From a virus, in the IMG/VR virus record IMGVR_UViG_3300005099_000139, positions 1 to 6,177 of that record: a stretch of 6,177 nt of DNA. One strand, written 5' to 3'. The position numbers and the translations under genes were made by a program. The notes under the pieces were generated by a model, which saw only the letters and a list, made by a program, of their open reading frames with translations, was not told the DNA's origin and did not search any database. Position 1 is the first letter of the stretch. Each line of letters starts with the position of its first letter. Positions 1-6,177 of the stretch are shown one piece after another.

Positions 1-91
1 AGAAGCCAATTTCGCACCATAAGGACGATGCAAATGATAATGCTCACCTACAAGATCAAGTACAAAAGCATTCAAGAATCTAGGTGATTGG
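1..91. repeat. Terminal redundancy, left copy (identical to 6087-6177), marking circular permutation
   Basis: Base-by-base comparison of both window ends gave 91/91 identity. The repeat runs to the window edges, so its length is set by the window rather than by biology. Confidence 0.95.
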
Positions 92-708
92 GTAATAAAC
101 CAAATATCATGCCCTGTATGACGATGTACCTGTAATTTTTGGACAATTTCATCTTTGTTTGACTGAGTACCCGATCTATAGCGTTCATGCTGCTGTGCTT
201 CATCATAATAAACAATAGAGCCGTCAGGCGTAGTACGCCAATCGTCAGGCGTTTTTAAAACGTGATCAACTTTAAGACCGTTAATGTCTGCATATTGCTG
301 GCGTACATCTAAAATATGCTCAAGTTTTAAATCAAGCTGATTATTAATTAAATTTAAGATGAGGTTATAAATAACCGTATCGTAAAAATATGATTCATAT
401 CGCTGTTCTAATGAAAAACCGCTAAAAGACTGAAACGAATCAAACAAGGTTGAAACAGTAATATTAGTCTGATCATATTCAGCTAAAGCGTTTCTCATAT
501 CTTCATAAACTTTCTGATCTCCATCAAAATCAGAAACGTTAATGAAAATCTGCTTATCACAATTATTTTCTATTTTCTCAAAGTTACGGTTAAAGATATG
601 TGGATTGAGTTTTAAATGCTTGGCATTGCTTTTTTCGCGTTCAACAATTGTATGAACTGCAAATAATGTTTTTCCGCTTCCTGGTGTGCCTGTTGTGAGT
701 ACGATCAT
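1..708 (-). CDS. Zot/pI-like assembly ATPase, N-terminal 236 codons (continues at 6086..5367; 475 aa in total)
   Basis: ATG at 708-706 is preceded by AAGGA (GAAGGATAATTATTATG). Hand translation gives MIVLTTGTPGSGKTLFAVHTIVE, with Walker A GTPGSGKT. It also gives SIVYYDEAQ (Walker B) and VHRHTGHDIWFITQSPRF, the pattern typical of Zot/pI P-loop NTPases. The frame is open to base 1. Confidence 0.9.
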   Translation of the reverse strand, partial: MIVLTTGTPGSGKTLFAVHTIVEREKSNAKHLKLNPHIFNRNFEKIENNCDKQIFINVSDFDGDQKVYEDMRNALAEYDQTNITVSTLFDSFQSFSGFSLEQRYESYFYDTVIYNLILNLINNQLDLKLEHILDVRQQYADINGLKVDHVLKTPDDWRTTPDGSIVYYDEAQQHERYRSGTQSNKDEIVQKLQVHRHTGHDIWFITQSPRFLNAFVLDLVGEHYHLHRPYGAKLAS

Positions 709-721
709 AATAATTATCCTT

Positions 722-772
722 CATAACTTTGGCGTGATGTGCGTTCACGGAACGCCACACGCCAAAGTTATG
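722..772. other. Compound hairpin at the pVI-like/pI junction: 15-bp outer stem and 6-bp inner stem
   Basis: CATAACTTTGGCGTG (722-736) is the exact reverse complement of CACGCCAAAGTTATG (758-772). Inside it, GCGTTC (741-746) pairs with GAACGC (750-755) around a 3-nt loop. The element overlaps the pVI-like stop codon (768-770) and ends 14 nt before the Zot RBS region. Confidence 0.8.
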
Positions 773-1055
773 CTGTTACTTTTTTCAGTCCGAGATTCAT
801 AGCTTCCATCGTTGCGCGAGCGATTAAAGCACCGATTAAAATTGAGATAGCGACATCAGCACCCGACAAACCTAGAAACGCCATAGCACTTGATGCACCA
901 GTAGACATTCCAGAAAGTGCTTTATTTATATAAACATTGATAATGCTTAAAATAATTTGACTTGAAACAATCGCAAGGCCAGCACCTACCAAAATTCGCT
1001 TTAATGCTGAACCTAGAACAAATCCAATAATCCAATATAGGAATCTTAAAATCAT
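768..1055 (-). CDS. pVI-like minor coat / membrane protein (95 aa)
   Basis: The ATG at 1055 overlaps the pIII-like stop (ATGA at 1055-1052). The protein is very hydrophobic with several predicted TM segments. Its position between the pIII-like and pI-like genes matches gene VI of Ff-type phages. The call rests on position and composition only. Confidence 0.6.
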   Translation of the reverse strand: MILRFLYWIIGFVLGSALKRILVGAGLAIVSSQIILSIINVYINKALSGMSTGASSAMAFLGLSGADVAISILIGALIARATMEAMNLGLKKVTA

Positions 1056-2515
1056 TCGCTTGACCCCCTAGACAGACCCATAACGATATAAGCACCAATG
1101 AGATAAGCGATAGCGATAACAAAAGGCCTAATCATGCTCATGAATTGACAAAGTGGCTGATATGAAAATTCGAGATTTTGAGTTGAACCCATAAAAGAAA
1201 CGGTAAACTGTTCACCAGCAGGACAACCATTAATAAAAGTGATTCTTTGCGTTTCATCTACCTGTATGTTTTGTTCTTCAGGTGTAATTTCGCCACTGTT
1301 ATCATTGCCCTGATCCGAACCCTGCTGATCTAAAAAAGCCCTGATTTCATCAAAGAAACCTAAAGTTTCATCAAAGAATTCCCTAGCACGATTAAAGAAG
1401 CTTTTTGTTTCTGCATAATGTTCTGCATCTTGTTCTTTGATTTCTTGCAAGCGTTCTAAATGCTGATCTAACTTTTGTTTTAATACGTCATTATTTGCAT
1501 TGTAATCAGTACGCCAATCCTTCCAGTCAAGATACCAATTACAGACTTGGACAGACCAATCACAGAATTCTGGAAATTCTACTGGTGGGTATTGTTCCGA
1601 CGGTGTGCCTTGTTCAGGATCAAAATTGTCTAACCATAGACGCAATTCATCATAAAACTGTTTATCTTGTTGTTTTACCTGTTCAAGCGTTAATGAATTG
1701 TTTTGGATAGCTTCCTTAATAGCTTCCTGCTTTGAATTGATTTCTGTTAATTGTTCCTTAGAATCCAAAGATAAACGCTTTAATTCTTCGCGATCTAAAT
1801 TTGCTTTTTCTTCATTGGCTGCATAGTCATTTGACCACTGTTGCCATTCTTTGTGCCATTGGCACATTACAGAAGCCCATTCACAAAATGCAGGCCATTC
1901 TGTAGGAGGAGGAGGAGGATCACCAGCATTTGGATCTTGAGTACAACGACCATTTACCATGATTTGACCAGCAGGACACTGATCATCACGCGGCATACAA
2001 TTACCATTTAAATCTAAGGCTTGACCAGCAGGACATTGTTTCTTTTGACATTGACCATTTACAAGAGTTTCACCAACAGGACATTTTTTAGGCTGACATT
2101 TTCCATTAGCATCTTTCTCATAGCCAGAAGGACAAGTTGTACAAGATTCATCATAATTATTATTTTTAACTTTTTGCGTAGCTAGAGAAAAATTTCCCAA
2201 ATAAGAATCTTTACCAGTATATTTAAATTGGCAAGTTGTACCAGTAATTTCAGTAAGAACAAACTCTGTATTTGAAGCTGCTTTATGTTGTTGCATACTA
2301 AAATTACAAGCTTGTGCAACTGTTTTAAACTGACCACCATAATAAGGACTAGTATAATATTCAACACCTAAACATTGATCTTCTGCCCAAGAACCGCCCG
2401 CACCACCACCACCAAAAGAACCACCAGCAGCAAAACTTTGACTTGATAAAAAGACTAATATCAAGACCGCAACATAATTAATAAAGCGAGTACAAATATT
2501 ATTACTATTAGCCAT
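1052..2515 (-). CDS. pIII-like adsorption/minor coat protein (487 aa from ATG 2515)
   Basis: There is a signal peptide MANSNNICTRFINYVAVLILVFLSSQSFA followed by a Gly-rich tract GGSFGGGGAGGS. Four CPxG..NGxC repeats, a PPPPP run and two Trp/Cys-rich repeats follow. The C terminus is a membrane anchor, MIRPFVIAIAYLIGAYIVMGLSRGSSE. The gene sits immediately after the major coat gene and its terminator. The ORF-track extension to 2635 begins at TTG and overlaps the coat gene. Confidence 0.75.
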   Translation of the reverse strand: MANSNNICTRFINYVAVLILVFLSSQSFAAGGSFGGGGAGGSWAEDQCLGVEYYTSPYYGGQFKTVAQACNFSMQQHKAASNTEFVLTEITGTTCQFKYTGKDSYLGNFSLATQKVKNNNYDESCTTCPSGYEKDANGKCQPKKCPVGETLVNGQCQKKQCPAGQALDLNGNCMPRDDQCPAGQIMVNGRCTQDPNAGDPPPPPTEWPAFCEWASVMCQWHKEWQQWSNDYAANEEKANLDREELKRLSLDSKEQLTEINSKQEAIKEAIQNNSLTLEQVKQQDKQFYDELRLWLDNFDPEQGTPSEQYPPVEFPEFCDWSVQVCNWYLDWKDWRTDYNANNDVLKQKLDQHLERLQEIKEQDAEHYAETKSFFNRAREFFDETLGFFDEIRAFLDQQGSDQGNDNSGEITPEEQNIQVDETQRITFINGCPAGEQFTVSFMGSTQNLEFSYQPLCQFMSMIRPFVIAIAYLIGAYIVMGLSRGSSE

Positions 2516-2543
2516 GACATTATATTTCCCCAAGTTTAAATTT

Positions 2544-2573
2544 AAAAAAGGACGATCCGAAGAACGCCCTTTC
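2544..2573 (-). terminator. Rho-independent terminator downstream of the major coat gene
   Basis: The minus-strand RNA is AAGGGCGUUC-UUCG-GAUCGUCCUU followed by a U run. The stem has one G.U pair and one U.U mismatch and closes on a UUCG tetraloop. It lies 22 nt after the coat stop, the same placement as the terminator after gene VIII in Ff phages. Confidence 0.75.
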
Positions 2574-2594
2574 TTGAAACGCTCACAAGCCGAA

Positions 2595-2807
2595 TTACAT
2601 CGCTCGGCGAATAAGTTTCCAGCCCTTGATACCAACCAAAATCAAGAGAATTGCAGCACCAATAGCAGCGATTGGAGCAGCCAAACCCGAAATTTCAGAA
2701 ACGATTTCAGTTGTTTCAATTGCAGCATTTGAAGCACTGGCAGCCATTAACGCACCAGCACCAATACCAGCAGGCAGGAAACGGTTTTTATTGGTTTTTA
2801 GATTCAT
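2595..2807 (-). CDS. pVIII-like major coat protein precursor (70 aa; predicted mature form ~42 aa)
   Basis: A strong RBS precedes the start (AAAAAGGAGATTCACATG). The leader MNLKTNKNRFLPAGIGAGALMAASASNA ends in an SxA site. The mature part has an acidic N terminus (AIETTEIVSEIS), a hydrophobic core (GLAAPIAAIGAAILLILVGI) and a basic C terminus (KGWKLIRRAM), the classic inovirus coat layout. Confidence 0.82.
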   Translation of the reverse strand: MNLKTNKNRFLPAGIGAGALMAASASNAAIETTEIVSEISGLAAPIAAIGAAILLILVGIKGWKLIRRAM

Positions 2808-2822
2808 GTGAATCTCCTTTTT

Positions 2823-3002
2823 TTACTTGAGAATTGAAGCAAGCTTTTTAAATCCCCATGCAGCAACAAGTACAAGACCTATCGCTACACAAAGTTGCCC
2901 CGCTTGTTCAACAGAAATATCGGGCAATCCGAGAAAGCCCACCTGTACCCAGTGGAGACACTGATTTGTAATTTCATCAATTTGGGTACATTGGTAAGCC
3001 AT
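2823..3002 (-). CDS. Small membrane protein (59 aa), candidate minor coat in the pVII/pIX position; absent from the ORF track
   Basis: Hand translation gives MAYQCTQIDEITNQCLHWVQVGFLGLPDISVEQAGQLCVAIGLVLVAAWGFKKLASILK. The RBS is AAGGA (CTAAAAGGATTTTAAAAAATG) and the stop TAA is at 2825-2823. The gene fills the gap between the ssDNA-binding candidate and the coat gene. Its C-terminal half has a hydrophobic core and a basic tail. Confidence 0.55.
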   Translation of the reverse strand: MAYQCTQIDEITNQCLHWVQVGFLGLPDISVEQAGQLCVAIGLVLVAAWGFKKLASILK

Positions 3003-3021
3003 TTTTTAAAATCCTTTTAGC

Positions 3022-3288
3022 CTAAGCAACAAGCGGAAGACCGTCAGAGCCAGTAATCCGCATAATAGACTGTTTCTTTGTAACAAGTAAACGTACAGGT
3101 ATTGTAAACTCATTACCAATATATTTTTTATATTCAGGAATCATAAACTCATGTTCTTTCGAAACCATGATTTGGACAGAACAGGGAACATCTTTACCAA
3201 GCCCCATATCATACTTAGTTGATTCAAATACTAAATTATTAAAATCACCCGTCTTTACATCAATTAAAACAGCTTTGAAGATATCCAT
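3022..3288 (-). CDS. Candidate ssDNA-binding protein (pV-like, 88 aa)
   Basis: The size (Ff gVp is 87 aa) and the position, downstream of rep and upstream of the coat genes, fit pV. The composition looks soluble. I could not verify any sequence motif by eye, and the RBS is weak. Confidence 0.5.
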   Translation of the reverse strand: MDIFKAVLIDVKTGDFNNLVFESTKYDMGLGKDVPCSVQIMVSKEHEFMIPEYKKYIGNEFTIPVRLLVTKKQSIMRITGSDGLPLVA

Positions 3289-3302
3289 GCTAAATTACCA
3301 TT

Positions 3303-3375
3303 TATGTTTACTTTGAAATATGTAAACATAAAAAAAATATGTTGTAAACAAGTATATTTGGCACAGGAGTAAACA
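3303..3375. promoter_or_regulatory. Cluster of GTAAACA / TGTAAACA motifs (candidate operators) in the divergent control region
   Basis: TATGTTTAC (3303-3311) and GTAAACATA (3322-3330) form a 9-bp inverted repeat. Further direct copies are TGTAAACA at 3343-3350 and GTAAACA at 3369-3375. Direct copies are spaced about 22-25 bp apart. The same octamer occurs at 4725-4732. Confidence 0.55.
3313..3343 (+). promoter_or_regulatory. Possible sigma70-type promoter for the plus-strand 65-aa gene
   Basis: TTGAAA (3313-3318) and TATGTT (3338-3343) are separated by a suboptimal 19-nt spacer. A GTAAACA motif lies in the spacer and more copies lie just downstream. This is the weakest call here. Confidence 0.25.
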
Positions 3376-3377
3376 AA

Positions 3378-3575
3378 ATGGTATTAAAAATGATCAAAAT
3401 GTTACGAATCAAAGAAGTACAGAGCGAAAATCTTCGAAAAAAGTGCATAGAAATTAATAAATTATTAATATCTATGAATAAAGAACCCCTCAAAGATAGT
3501 GAAATCGCTCACAAAATTTTAGACATAGGTATAAAAAGCATCTTTGTTAATAAATACGGAGAACTAGAAATGTAA
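3378..3575 (+). CDS. Small plus-strand protein (65 aa), candidate transcriptional regulator, possibly ribbon-helix-helix-like
   Basis: The ATG follows GGAG at 8-nt spacing (CAGGAGTAAACAAAATG). The composition is charged and helical. The pattern KMLRIKEV, then a helix, then ..KDSEIAHKILDIG, resembles the strand-helix-(S/T)E-helix layout of Arc/CopG-type repressors. It is the only gene opposed to all others, is convergent with rep, and overlaps the rep 3' end by 12 nt. Confidence 0.55.
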   Translation: MVLKMIKMLRIKEVQSENLRKKCIEINKLLISMNKEPLKDSEIAHKILDIGIKSIFVNKYGELEM

Positions 3576-4643
3576 TTCTTCACAAACGTCTATGAAATAA
3601 TCAAAAATAGCAAAATCATCATCACATCCAGTAGGGCGAGAGTAAGATAAATAATTCTGCATATCAAAAGCAGGAATATTTTTAGAATCAAAAGAATAAA
3701 GATCAGATGCAAAAGAAAATTGATCAAGATCATAGTGATAAAACATAGATACTGAAACAGGCATCTTATTGGGGTACATTTGCTTATATTTATCTAATTC
3801 AGTTATATCAACAACAGATCCAAAGCCTTTCCACTTCAAAACACGAGAATTATGATCAAAATGCCAAGGGGATGAAAAACCCTTTAAGGTGACACGATCC
3901 ACCCAATAACAACCAAACTTTTTAACACCGTTATTAATATCAAATAATTCACGAACCCAGGAAGGCGCACAAAGCCATATTTTAGAAATACGCATAGGAA
4001 CAGTTAGACCACCAGAACCATGCAACCGCGCATTTTTAGGAATTTTACCGTAAGACTGGGGATCAATACCCTTAGATGTATATTTGCAAAGATAACCAAC
4101 AGGTTTACGCGCCCAAACGCTGTTAGTCATGCCATGTTTCCACCATCCTTGTTTGTCAGCCTTGGGCATAGTGTGACCTTTAGGAATCCACCACATGACA
4201 TGATAATGGGGAACACCCTTTTTAGTTAATTCCATAACCCAAATATAATGAACAGAAAGACCCTTTCTTTTAGCCCATTGTTTAACACACTTAACATACT
4301 CAGTAACATGCTTAGGAGACCAATCAACATCAGGACGATAAGTCAAAGTAACCATTGCAGGCTTCATTCTTTGATTGAAAGCCTTAATTTTTTCTTCAAC
4401 AACTTCAGCAGTAACACGAACAGATTTTTGAAGACGCTTTAAACGCAAATAATCTTGAGAAGGCAACTCAATTTGATAAGGCGTGTCACTTGTTAATATA
4501 GAGACAAGCCCAGTGTCACGTAATTCAGATTTTATATTTTTAGCAGAAACGCGCGAAGAAGCAGCAGAAAGATTTTTTAAAAACGAAACATCAACAGGAT
4601 TACTAAGATCCAAAGCAGAAACAACTTGATTCATCGTAGACAC
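3564..4643 (-). CDS. HUH rolling-circle replication initiator (Rep), 359 aa from GTG 4643 or 356 aa from ATG 4634
   Basis: RCR motif 1 is MVTLTYR (4335-4355). The HUH motif is PHYHVMWW, with H-Y-H codons at 4200-4208. The catalytic Tyr motif is VGYLCKYTSK, of the Y-x3-Y type, at 4080-4094. This is the largest cytoplasmic protein and sits at the head of the operon. Confidence 0.85.
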   Translation of the reverse strand: MSTMNQVVSALDLSNPVDVSFLKNLSAASSRVSAKNIKSELRDTGLVSILTSDTPYQIELPSQDYLRLKRLQKSVRVTAEVVEEKIKAFNQRMKPAMVTLTYRPDVDWSPKHVTEYVKCVKQWAKRKGLSVHYIWVMELTKKGVPHYHVMWWIPKGHTMPKADKQGWWKHGMTNSVWARKPVGYLCKYTSKGIDPQSYGKIPKNARLHGSGGLTVPMRISKIWLCAPSWVRELFDINNGVKKFGCYWVDRVTLKGFSSPWHFDHNSRVLKWKGFGSVVDITELDKYKQMYPNKMPVSVSMFYHYDLDQFSFASDLYSFDSKNIPAFDMQNYLSYSRPTGCDDDFAIFDYFIDVCEELHF

Positions 4644-4669
4644 CGATTTAAAATACGTTTAGACACCGA
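4637..4669. repeat. Two direct copies of TAGACACCGA, 23 bp apart, spanning the rep start codon and 5' UTR
   Basis: Exact 10-mers lie at 4637-4646 and 4660-4669. On the minus strand each reads TCGGTGTCTA. The first copy overlaps the GTG/ATG start region of rep. Confidence 0.7.
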
Positions 4670-4702
4670 AGCCTAAAGAACGCCAATTCTTTAGGCTTTT
4701 TT
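4669..4702 (+). terminator. Perfect 12-bp hairpin followed by a T run, with plus-strand intrinsic-terminator geometry; on the minus strand it is a 5'-UTR stem-loop of rep
   Basis: AAGCCTAAAGAA (4669-4680), loop CGCCAA, TTCTTTAGGCTT (4687-4698), then TTTT on the plus strand. On the minus strand the stem is followed by CGGTGTC, which is not a U tract. Confidence 0.6.
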
Positions 4703-4730
4703 ATTATACATAGAAAAGTAAACCTGTAAA
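4703..4730 (-). promoter_or_regulatory. Near-consensus sigma70 promoter upstream of rep
   Basis: The minus strand reads TTTACA (4730-4725), a 16-nt spacer, then TATAAT (4708-4703). The predicted transcription start is near 4696. The -35 box is embedded in TGTTTACA, the reverse complement of the TGTAAACA motif. Confidence 0.65.
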
Positions 4731-4753
4731 CAGATTACATAGGCACAGATACA

Positions 4754-5032
4754 CTATACGAAATCAGTCTTTTTAAAATTAGGATTAATATTAGTAATAA
4801 ATTGAAGTGCTGCATCACGGCCATCAAATACATATCGATAATAATCGTGTGTTTCCATGACATAAAACCAAGTCTGACCAACCAAAAACTTACAAACATA
4901 TAATTCATGAGAATCAATATAAGCTTGAGTTATGTTGTGATGAATTGCTGATGATTCACGGTCTAAAATTCTTACCAACTCATAAGAATCTGATTGCAAA
5001 AATAATTCTTGTGATCTTTTAGAAATACTCAT
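4754..5032 (-). CDS. Hypothetical protein (92 aa), no recognisable family
   Basis: The ATG follows GGAG (CTGGAGAAAACAATG). The composition looks soluble. The ORF fills the space between the small-ORF cluster and the rep promoter. The overlapping ORF 4735..4917 in another frame looks like a shadow. Confidence 0.6.
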   Translation of the reverse strand: MSISKRSQELFLQSDSYELVRILDRESSAIHHNITQAYIDSHELYVCKFLVGQTWFYVMETHDYYRYVFDGRDAALQFITNINPNFKKTDFV

Positions 5033-5062
5033 TGTTTTCTCCAGTGGCTATTATCATTCGAC

Positions 5063-5088
5063 GAAAATGGGAACCCCAACCCATTTTC
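5063..5088. other. 9-bp perfect hairpin in the 93-bp non-coding gap
   Basis: GAAAATGGG (5063-5071) pairs with CCCATTTTC (5080-5088) around an 8-nt C/G-rich loop. No clear U tract follows on either strand. Confidence 0.6.
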
Positions 5089-5125
5089 TAAAACCTACCG
5101 ATATAAAGCATATGGGAGCTTGTAA

Positions 5126-5212
5126 TCAGGAAGGAAAAAACAACTTAAAATCTATGTAAATCAGTAAAGCTATGACAACGATACCCGCACCAAAACAAGC
5201 AATTAAACGCAT
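5126..5212 (-). CDS. Tiny single-pass membrane ORF (28 aa)
   Basis: Hand translation gives MRLIACFGAGIVVIALLIYIDFKLFFPS. The ATG overlaps the upstream stop (TAATG), AAGGAA lies 8 nt upstream, and the stop TGA is at 5128-5126. Confidence 0.4.
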   Translation of the reverse strand: MRLIACFGAGIVVIALLIYIDFKLFFPS

Positions 5213-5367
5213 TAATTTTCCTTATAGTATTGTTCTAAGCATGAATACAAAATCCATCCAATCAAAATACCGAAAAACAAACCAACAATAAAGCCCATTC
5301 CACCAACAAAAAATAAACCTCTATTTAATTCTAGAATTACTTCCTTAGAAACAATAAATTCTTGCAT
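5212..5367 (-). CDS. Small single-pass membrane ORF (51 aa), translationally coupled to Zot/pI
   Basis: Hand translation gives MQEFIVSKEVILELNRGLFFVGGMGFIVGLFFGILIGWILYSCLEQYYKEN. The ATG shares one base with the Zot stop (TAATG at 5369-5365), and GGGGG lies 7 nt upstream. Confidence 0.5.
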   Translation of the reverse strand: MQEFIVSKEVILELNRGLFFVGGMGFIVGLFFGILIGWILYSCLEQYYKEN

Positions 5368-6177
5368 TATATAGCCCCCTGAACTGGAACAATTTGATTA
5401 TTTTGCTGAACCTGAGCTGAATTAAATTGTTGCTGCTGCTGTTGTTTAGCGAAATAGTTGAAAGGACGATCACCATTTTCAATTAATTTTCTACAGTCTT
5501 CACTGGAGACATTAAGCTTAGTACCTTGTTGAGTGTAAGCATAATATTTACCGTTGAACTTAGTACATCCTGAGAAAACAGGCATAGCCGTCACATCATA
5601 TTGAATAGAATCCTGTATTTCTTGCTGATCAAAAGGCGTATCAGGATTATATGAAACACGCTGAACATTAGATTCGGAATTATTCTGCTTTGATTTTGAA
5701 TCAAACCATTGGACACATTCAGGCTTTTCAACATTTATGCCCTTCCGACATTCCTGATCTAGTTGATCTGGAGCTATAGAAGCTGTTTCTTGCTTATCCC
5801 CTTGCTGATTTTTTTCTTGATTTGGTTCTTCCTTAGCTGATTCAGGATTAATAAATTTTTGCGTCTTATCACTAAAAATCATATTCCAAACAAAGATACC
5901 CAAGCAGATTGCAACAGCACCAATAATAAAGAACTTTTTAGGTATCTTGAATTTTACGCTATGAGAAGTTGCAGACTTATAATGAGTAAATAAAGACTTA
6001 GGATATTTAAATAAAAACTCATTTTCAGCAAGTTCACGGCTTGCTGTAGATTGCGGTTGTTTACGGCAGCTTCGCCAGTAGTAAACAGAAGCCAATTTCG
6101 CACCATAAGGACGATGCAAATGATAATGCTCACCTACAAGATCAAGTACAAAAGCATTCAAGAATCTAGGTGATTGG
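5367..6177 (-). CDS. Zot/pI-like assembly protein, C-terminal part: transmembrane segment plus a ~168-aa predicted periplasmic domain (6087-6177 duplicates 1-91)
   Basis: This is the same frame as 1..708 across the circular junction. A TM helix FFIIGAVAICLGIFVWNMIF lies at about 5874-5933, as in pI/Zot topology, and the stop TAA is at 5369-5367. The 'M' at 6161 in the ORF track is a TTG Leu codon inside the gene. Confidence 0.88.
   Translation of the reverse strand, partial: QSPRFLNAFVLDLVGEHYHLHRPYGAKLASVYYWRSCRKQPQSTASRELAENEFLFKYPKSLFTHYKSATSHSVKFKIPKKFFIIGAVAICLGIFVWNMIFSDKTQKFINPESAKEEPNQEKNQQGDKQETASIAPDQLDQECRKGINVEKPECVQWFDSKSKQNNSESNVQRVSYNPDTPFDQQEIQDSIQYDVTAMPVFSGCTKFNGKYYAYTQQGTKLNVSSEDCRKLIENGDRPFNYFAKQQQQQQFNSAQVQQNNQIVPVQGAI
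6087..6177. repeat. Terminal redundancy, right copy (identical to 1-91)
   Basis: Same comparison as the left copy. Confidence 0.95.

Follow-up and report, generated by a model that had tools for sequence, protein, structure and literature searches.

The 6,177-nucleotide window analysed here (IMG/VR virus record IMGVR_UViG_3300005099_000139, positions 1 to 6,177) is an inovirus genome in which one small gene, orf65, lies opposite the phage operon. Copies of an 8-bp quasi-palindromic box, TGTAAACA, are located both upstream of orf65 and on the promoter of rep, the gene of the rolling-circle initiator (Table 1). Comparison with relatives identifies orf65 as a real, conserved gene of an unannotated phage protein family. 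Its product is probably a small, basic, sequence-specific DNA-binding regulator, putatively a repressor of rep that also regulates its own gene.

The open reading frame (ORF) of orf65 is unbroken in relatives whose proteins are 71-98% identical. Among the closer ones, synonymous codon changes equal or outnumber the non-synonymous; at 71% identity the counts are 18 synonymous and 19 non-synonymous. The antisense ORF 3308..3493 gains stops or loses its start in L071, L072 and L075-77 and is ruled out as a gene; a preliminary description of this DNA, made from its letters alone, had named the fate of the two frames in homologous phages as a check, and the outcome favours orf65. That description had also credited the gene with a good ribosome-binding site, and this stands: beside the Shine-Dalgarno sequence of the window, GGAG or GAGG occurs at a similar distance from the start in L071, L074 and L075. 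The protein, basic by residue count of the translation, matches PHROG 5642 (E 6.7e-18; residues 4-64 of 65 on profile positions 4-64 of 68), a family with no assigned function and no annotation. A set of 5.8 billion proteins contains 71 homologues, and an exhaustive HMMER search gives 164 clusters of relatives at 50% identity, nearly all of 60-110 amino acids (aa). The family sequence is conserved to about 25% identity, with R10, N27 and H45 near-invariant and S41/E42 present in most members. Every recognisable inovirus gene of the window (Pfam or PHROG matches) is on the minus strand. In complete relatives orf65 is the sole gene called on the plus strand, in agreement with the earlier statement that it alone opposes the phage operon. 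Its final 12 bp overlap the 3' end of the convergent rep, and the same overlap is seen in all complete relatives of the clade.

The word GTAAACA occurs seven times on the two strands (3305(-), 3322, 3344, 3369, 4726, 6058(-) and 6081) against 1.09 expected. Seven copies were reached in 0/200 shuffles and 0/5000 dinucleotide shuffles (0/5200 together), and at least three copies within 80 bp in none of them; the enrichment claimed at first sight (seven against about one) is thus upheld by a formal scan against shuffled sequence. As GTAAACA was picked after viewing the sequence, every 7-mer was scored in shuffles: any 7-mer with four non-overlapping copies in 80 bp appears in 4/400, and some 7-mer with three copies within 80 bp in 281/400. 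The four copies upstream of orf65 had been counted correctly, but their span is 71 bp and not 73 bp, and the inverted repeat that had been given as 9 bp is 11 bp long. The exact TGTAAACA octamer is present three times (3321, 3343 and 4725; 0.45 expected), and all three are intergenic, in line with the claim that they fall in regulatory DNA.

The box is near-palindromic (TGT-AA-ACA), so a switch of the centre between AA and TT merely flips its orientation, and for this reason direct and inverted copies coexist. At the rep promoter, 12 loci were compared, the window and 11 relatives. The abutting pair of boxes over the -35 and spacer is kept in all of them, as the palindrome GTTTACnnGTAAAC in L071, L074 and L075 and as AGTAAACC plus TGTAAACA in the window type, and GT..ACnnGTAAACA is invariant where the flanks diverge. 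In every relative the rep -35 is located in the right-hand box and the left-hand box in the spacer; the -10 is invariant. This is the best promoter match of the window, and its -35 is the complement of 4725-4730, so that the octamer 4725-4732 does contain, on its complement, the -35 of a near-consensus promoter as had been noticed at the outset. Upstream of orf65, boxes B and C are unchanged in relatives despite a diverged flanking spacer. In L071 and L074 (71-72% relatives) the spacer has diverged at both ends, and the core block from TTTAC through GAAATATGTAAACATAAAAAAA to TTGTAAACA-GTA, which includes boxes B and C, is invariant. Box A has become TATTTAC in these two loci and box D is missing. 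Two further GTAAACA copies are located within the Zot gene (6058-6064 and 6081-6087) in inverted orientation; only L079, which has the same Zot allele, keeps both, and they are decayed in L074. Tied to one allele, they were rejected as operators and are probably incidental coding sequence. We take boxes B and C and the rep-promoter pair to be the functional set, and A and D to be clade-specific extras, because A and D are lost in L071 and L074 and the Zot copies are probably incidental.

A pattern-plus-tblastn scan located homologues of orf65 in 56 contigs of IMG/VR and in 11 genomic loci; most of these are contigs of inovirus size, and some are prophage regions. Neisseria, Pseudomonas, Cellvibrio and Halieaceae are among the records that bear a name. 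Homologues are present as well in three inoviruses from saliva, in Dulem virus 63 and in Pseudomonas phage NEU2023. A tblastn search of 50,697 phage records gave eight matches and only five inovirus records with an orf65 homologue, none of them named Pf4. The family has been seen so far only in inoviruses and inovirus-like contigs. In the 56 + 11 loci the homologue lies on the strand opposite the Rep and Zot matches, except in two near-identical relatives of the window. The divergent genes tested beside homologues are Rep, and in the eight lineages whose Rep start is unambiguous the distance between the two starts is about 100-135 bp. The partner Reps belong to PF05144/PF05155 in most lineages, to PF02486 in the Neisseria type and to PF23343 in the window. 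The spacer between rep and the homologue contains three to four copies of an 8-bp palindrome that is the lineage's own (TGCATGCA, TGTCGACA, TGTATACA, TGTTAACA, TGCATACA, CACATGTG and others). Most of these palindromes fit TGYNNRCA, and in genomes of 4-16 kb the exact 8-mers occur only, or almost only, within ~110 bp upstream of the homologue. Measured from the homologue start, two boxes abut at about -107/-99, and one box each is located near -57 and near -33 (-33/-34); boxes B and C of the window, at -57 and -35, match the two single positions. GTCAAC, whose complement contains TTGAC, a -35 for the leftward rep promoter, is conserved between the -57 and -33 boxes in many lineages, with an A-tract in the window instead.

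Two comparisons separate the small protein from Rep. L012 has the same TGCATGCA boxes as L011 and L062; the regulators are 61-66% identical and the Reps have no significant similarity. L012 and L056 have Reps that are 61% identical, but their boxes differ and the regulators are only 50% identical. Box identity, as judged from these sequences, follows the small protein and not Rep. The ancestral order appears to be a compact divergent switch: rep promoter and start, box pair, box, box, regulator gene. The window clade departs from it, as orf65 lies downstream of rep in convergent orientation, and the divergent regulator-rep arrangement that homologues elsewhere have is absent. A different Rep module (PF23343) appears to have come to lie on the regulator's other side, with the box pair on the new rep promoter, and the relocation of the regulator between rep and the gene in gene-V position appears specific to this clade. 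Separately, the contig L061, from a Cellvibrio metagenome-assembled genome, has three TGTTAACA boxes at ~5540-5610 and again at ~11340-11410, 5.7 kb downstream, with identical 42- and 24-bp spacing in both sets, as if the regulatory cassette, or a prophage, were present in two tandem copies.

Our data suggest the following mechanism. The orf65 protein, probably as a dimer, would bind 8-bp quasi-palindromic boxes, TGTAAACA here and TGYNNRCA in most lineages. As the two boxes at rep lie side by side over the -35 and spacer of its near-consensus promoter, occupancy would be predicted to block RNA polymerase and hold down Rep, that is, to repress by promoter occlusion rather than to activate. Since no good promoter is found between rep and the gene-V and structural genes, these downstream genes would be lowered as well and the whole phage programme throttled. 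The structural genes are probably read through from the rep promoter, in the manner of the single fpsA operon of phage SW1 (PMC4762005), because the spacer upstream of the gene in gene-V position has no conserved sigma-70-like promoter. The candidate orf65 promoter contains box B within its spacer, and its TATGTT abuts box C; among rightward candidates this one alone keeps its position across the window, L071 and L074, and it has a weak score and a long spacer. Boxes B and C, flanking or overlapping this weak promoter, would give autoregulation of uncertain sign. The idea that one small protein controls rep together with its own or the structural promoter is supported in part: the motif is conserved at the rep -35 and at two upstream sites, but only two of the four upstream copies are conserved and 3289-3377 has no convincing structural promoter. 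As orf65 is convergent with rep, rep transcription would interfere with orf65 expression, and through mutual inhibition the pair may act as a switch governing phage output and the copy number of the replicative form.

In the interval from the rep -10 to the rep start lies a conserved hairpin, 1.1 kb downstream from orf65, with compensatory changes in L078 and L074. It is the only strong candidate for a plus-strand terminator, and could terminate read-through from orf65, form a 5' stem-loop of the rep mRNA, or both. An Rfam search of the region gave nothing significant.

Several points weigh against orf65 as a DNA-binding regulator. No recognised DNA-binding domain was found in Pfam, NCBIfam or PDB sequence searches, and a profile search over 5.8 billion proteins gave no match bearing any Pfam domain. 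Foldseek of an AlphaFold2 model against PDB and BFVD gave no match with E < 0.4. No consistent residue-to-box code is seen at the positions flanking the invariant Arg, T-R-T being found with both TGCATGCA and TGTATACA. A literature search found no paper on any family member and no experimental data for one. On the DNA side, a position weight matrix (PWM) scan found no conserved sigma-70-like (leftward) promoter for the gene in gene-V position in the 3289-3377 spacer; with this and the weak orf65 promoter, boxes B and C may serve autoregulation, a roadblock or activation.

The model, made with 47 homologues, has a predicted local distance difference test score (pLDDT) of 90 and consists of a coil (residues 1-12), a helix (13-32), a second helix (40-54) and a hairpin (56-64), with the conserved loop EPLKDSE between the helices; the mean pLDDT of residues 1-10 is 64. 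For the 65-aa protein a sequence pattern of the Arc/CopG type (ribbon-helix-helix, RHH) had been noted, and a search for an RHH or helix-turn-helix (HTH) fold suggested. Neither fold is supported by a family match in Pfam, NCBIfam, PDB sequences or Foldseek, and the structure prediction that had been suggested as a check yields two helices and a C-terminal hairpin, with no significant structural match. For the RHH class there is no significant sequence or profile match and no RHH Pfam match past any threshold. A Pfam scan of 138 members with E up to 10 gave NikA-like in four (best 0.011), SelB-wing in four and DUF6290 in two; NikA-like and SelB-wing are the only recurring DNA-binding names and the rest is scattered noise. 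Across PDB sequences, orf65 aligns to NikA with E 0.18, and hhalign against Arc and CopG gives probabilities below 2%. In these weak alignments the N-terminal LRLxxxEQxxLRKK is in register with the strand and helix A of NikA, Arc and CopG. The family consensus here is M-x-x-x-(L/V/I)-R-(L/I)-(T/S/K)-x-x-E-Q-x-x-L-R-K-K. Conservation extends to h-R-h-(T/S/K)-x-x-E, as in an RHH strand, and to DSE at the start of the second helix, a cap reminiscent of NSE on helix B of Arc and Mnt; in the model, residues 1-12 are coil, helix A has 20 residues and the hairpin is extra.

For the winged-helix class, several domains (DtxR/IdeR, Orc1/Cdc6 and PCI) are among the weak Foldseek matches (E > 2, template modelling score <= 0.52), which include no RHH protein. 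Helix 40-54 followed by the hairpin resembles a recognition helix and wing; there is no significant structural match, and one helix is missing compared to a three-helix bundle. A Cro/CI-type HTH gave no Pfam or NCBIfam HTH match, the model having two helices as compared to four or five, and RstR is found in the BFVD Foldseek list only at E 1.6. An RHH of atypical form, with helix A extended and a hairpin added, is plausible, and a truncated winged-helix-like mode is no less so. The near-invariant R10, N27 and H45 and the conserved outer TG...CA of the boxes would fit a shared recognition core with a variable centre.

The only weak similarity that recurs, to NikA (in the PDB and Pfam comparisons above), would also suit a protein that binds the boxes mainly as an origin or initiation accessory of the rolling-circle Rep, like NikA, TraY or a replication enhancer, with transcriptional effects secondary. 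The boxes flank rep on both sides in the window and adjoin the rep start in other lineages, as such a role would have it. We consider it unlikely, since the family pairs with three Rep families (PF23343, PF05144/PF05155 and PF02486), box identity is independent of Rep, the boxes at rep coincide exactly with the -35 and spacer, and no nick-site-like conserved sequence is found beside them.

Without an identified DNA-binding fold for orf65 or a clean covariation of its residues with box sequence, the boxes might instead be read by a host transcription factor or by Rep, and orf65 might have an unrelated role such as superinfection exclusion or an anti-host function. We regard this as quite unlikely. 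In nearly every lineage examined, the palindromes are located directly upstream of the homologue and almost nowhere else; they change with the small protein while Rep stays similar; a host factor leaves so many box sequences unexplained; and orf65 is their sole constant neighbour.

Very improbable is a locus acting at the RNA level, in which the orf65 transcript would run antisense into rep and end at the 4669-4704 hairpin, lowering rep expression by transcriptional interference or antisense pairing, with the peptide secondary. The convergent arrangement with its 12-bp overlap, and the position of the only strong plus-strand terminator just before the rep promoter, with its compensatory changes, are as expected for it; but a pure RNA function does not explain a protein conserved to such low identity with near-invariant residues, and most lineages, with the gene and rep transcribed divergently, have no antisense arrangement. 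Chance in AT-rich intergenic DNA (36% G+C, in which a word repeated three times is common in shuffles) deserves practically no credence and is already refuted by an ORF conserved over hundreds of contigs with a PHROG profile match, by the rarity of four copies of any word and by the boxes kept in relatives.

Beyond orf65 as a putative box-binding repressor of rep, a broader reading is offered tentatively, as a possibility that we rate below an even chance: PHROG 5642 may be an unrecognised master-regulator class of filamentous phages, possibly with a new variant of a DNA-binding fold. It would recognise an 8-bp TGYNNRCA palindrome whose centre is re-programmed between lineages, travel as a portable gene-operator cassette among unrelated Rep modules, and be split here, the gene with its own boxes lying downstream of rep and a box pair remaining at the rep promoter, into a convergent-transcription toggle for the copy number of a non-integrating phage.

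CopG (RepA) of plasmid pMV158 is a very small repressor of a rolling-circle Rep promoter that binds a pseudo-palindrome over the -35. The N-terminal hydrophobic-R-hydrophobic-polar-x-x-E...L of orf65 aligns, without significance, in register with the strand and helix A of CopG and Arc. Compared to CopG, Arc and Mnt, helix A of orf65 is about seven residues longer and the C-terminal beta-hairpin is extra, and whereas CopG is co-transcribed with repB, orf65 is opposed to rep. MetJ, with its metboxes, and omega, with its heptads, are RHH proteins that read short repeated units. The candidate operators of the orf65 family resemble these in being 7-8-bp units, one unit per dimer being expected, and are used singly or abutting (4717-4732 here, -107/-99 elsewhere) in either orientation. 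Unlike the contiguous MetJ and omega units, those found here are mostly 22-43 bp apart, and no homology to MetJ or omega was detected. CopG, MetJ and omega may be regarded as the closest mechanistic analogues, with superfamily membership not established.

Among inoviruses, RstR of Vibrio phage CTXphi and FpsR of Shewanella phage SW1 are Cro/CI-type HTH proteins of ~13 kDa; CTXphi has three RstR sites in a compact divergent region, and SW1 has a single fpsA operon (PMC4762005). Like the putative regulator orf65, both are small phage-encoded proteins opposite the main operon, and they control the rstA/fpsA (rep) promoter via several short operators, as is proposed here. RstR is divergent from rep, which is the position of orf65 homologues in other inoviruses. 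In the window, unlike for RstR, the regulator is downstream of and convergent with rep and the boxes are in two regions 1.35 kb apart; unlike RstR and FpsR, orf65 matches no HTH model and has two predicted helices only. Pf4r (repressor C) of Pseudomonas phage Pf4 is an immunity and replication regulator encoded opposite the core genes (PMC8402870). With RstR and FpsR it counts among the Cro/CI-type HTH proteins (PMC4762005, PMC8402870). Pf4r and orf65 share the location opposite the core genes and no sequence relationship, there being no Pf4-named record in the tblastn search; Pf4 is an integrating prophage, and the window has no evident integrase. To have called orf65 RstR- or Pf4r-like in a different genomic position was fair: homologues are opposite the operon in ~65 inovirus loci, immediately upstream of rep and divergent where a Rep was identified, and have palindromic boxes of their own.

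An omega-like RHH gene is reported in inovirus PMBT54 (PMC10534721). This gene, ORF13, probably does not belong to the orf65 family, because no PMBT54 record is among the eight tblastn matches. Our literature search found only the HTH-type inovirus repressors (FpsR, Pf4r and RstR) and this omega-like RHH gene, none of them shown to be PHROG 5642. By analogy, the orf65 system would be functionally an inovirus repressor-operator switch on the rep promoter, of a known kind. New to PHROG 5642, as far as we have found, are the proposed regulator function and operator architecture, which the window has in a split, rearranged form.

The result aids inovirus annotation and overturns no concept. Only for a few models (Ff, CTXphi, Pf4 and SW1) is it understood how chronic, non-integrating filamentous phages are regulated, and an unannotated family with members in inoviruses of Neisseria, Pseudomonas, Cellvibrio and numerous uncultured hosts gains a proposed function, candidate operators and a testable circuit. 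If the proposal is true, fixed positions with lineage-specific boxes would form a compact natural set of orthogonal repressor-operator pairs, and the boxes would help to predict immunity groups among inoviruses. The repositioned cassette illustrates the reshuffling of a regulatory module upon exchange of the Rep module.

The genome is a 6086-bp circle; the window repeats bases 1-91 as 6087-6177 (91-bp terminal overlap). Rep is 36-37% identical to the gene II proteins of Xanthomonas phages Cf1c, phiLf and XacF1. Its ORF can be extended to GTG 4643 (359 aa); the Reps of relatives have 354-360 aa, mostly 356 aa, and as the 356-aa calls begin at the corresponding ATG, ATG 4634 is the more likely start. 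The gene in gene-V position is divergent from orf65, with an 89-bp spacer common to both. The other minus-strand genes include a 59-aa gene, the major coat protein (PF05356), two small unannotated genes, a pVI-like protein (DUF2523) and a Zot/pI gene that spans the circle junction. No integrase is evident among the Pfam and PHROG matches, and whole-genome megablast against the 50,697 phage records gave no match.

Table 1. Positions of orf65, its candidate operators and other features of the window.
Feature	Position	Strand	Remarks
orf65, 65-aa basic protein, putative box-binding regulator	3378..3575	+	ORF; PHROG 5642
Shine-Dalgarno AGGAG	3365..3369	+	8 nt before orf65 ATG
Box B, TGTAAACA, core operator candidate	3321..3328	+	-57 from orf65 ATG; exact octamer
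Box C, TGTAAACA, core operator candidate	3343..3350	+	-35 from orf65 ATG; exact octamer
Box A, AGTAAACA read on the minus strand, clade-specific	3305..3312	-	left arm of inverted repeat 3301-3311/3322-3332
Box D, AGTAAACA, clade-specific	3368..3375	+	between Shine-Dalgarno and ATG of orf65
Abutting 8-mers AGTAAACC + TGTAAACA on rep promoter	4717..4732	+	in all 12 loci compared
rep promoter, -35 TTTACA (4730-4725), -10 TATAAT (4708-4703)	4703..4730	-	11/12 match, 16-nt spacer
Candidate orf65 promoter, low confidence	3313..3343	+	PWM scan: TTGAAA, 19-nt spacer, TATGTT
Conserved hairpin, then T6 on plus strand	4669..4704 (stem-loop 4669..4698)	.	12-bp perfect arms AAGCCTAAAGAA/TTCTTTAGGCTT
rep, rolling-circle initiator, PF23343, Cf1c/phiLf-like	3564..4634	-	Pfam E 4e-32
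88-aa gene, gene-V position	3022..3288	-	ORF; PHROG 15713; neighbour kept in all relatives
pIII-like protein, TspB-like C-terminus	1052-2521	-	

The relatives of the clade are free circles of 5-6 kb from sewage and other metagenomes. All complete ones have the same gene order: gene-V-position gene (-), 89-bp spacer, orf65 (+), rep (-). These three genes and the rep promoter form a block common to the window, L078-L085, L071, L074 and L075. The orf65 product is identical among L078-L085 and 98% identical to that of the window. The Zot (374, 394, 419 or 469 aa), pIII and coat modules vary among the same genomes. Sequence likeness among relatives stops just past the rep-promoter boxes, and the pattern is one of module shuffling with a breakpoint at the operator. 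The 92-aa gene at 4754-5032, flanked by Zot and the rep promoter, gave neither a Pfam nor a PHROG match, and in relatives its slot holds different genes (105 aa or 57 aa) or none called; it behaves as a variable accessory slot adjoining the recombination breakpoint.

The C-terminus of the pIII-like protein matches Neisseria TspB (E 1.8e-5), and in the central part of the protein Cys-containing motifs (CP.G.....NG.C) recur ahead of a run of prolines. Between the stop of the pVI-like gene (768) and the start of Zot (718), at 722-772, is an inverted repeat with perfect 15-nt arms (CATAACTTTGGCGTG/CACGCCAAAGTTATG) separated by 21 nt. By eye it is in part self-complementary, and it might serve as a packaging signal, as the minus-strand origin or as an attenuator.

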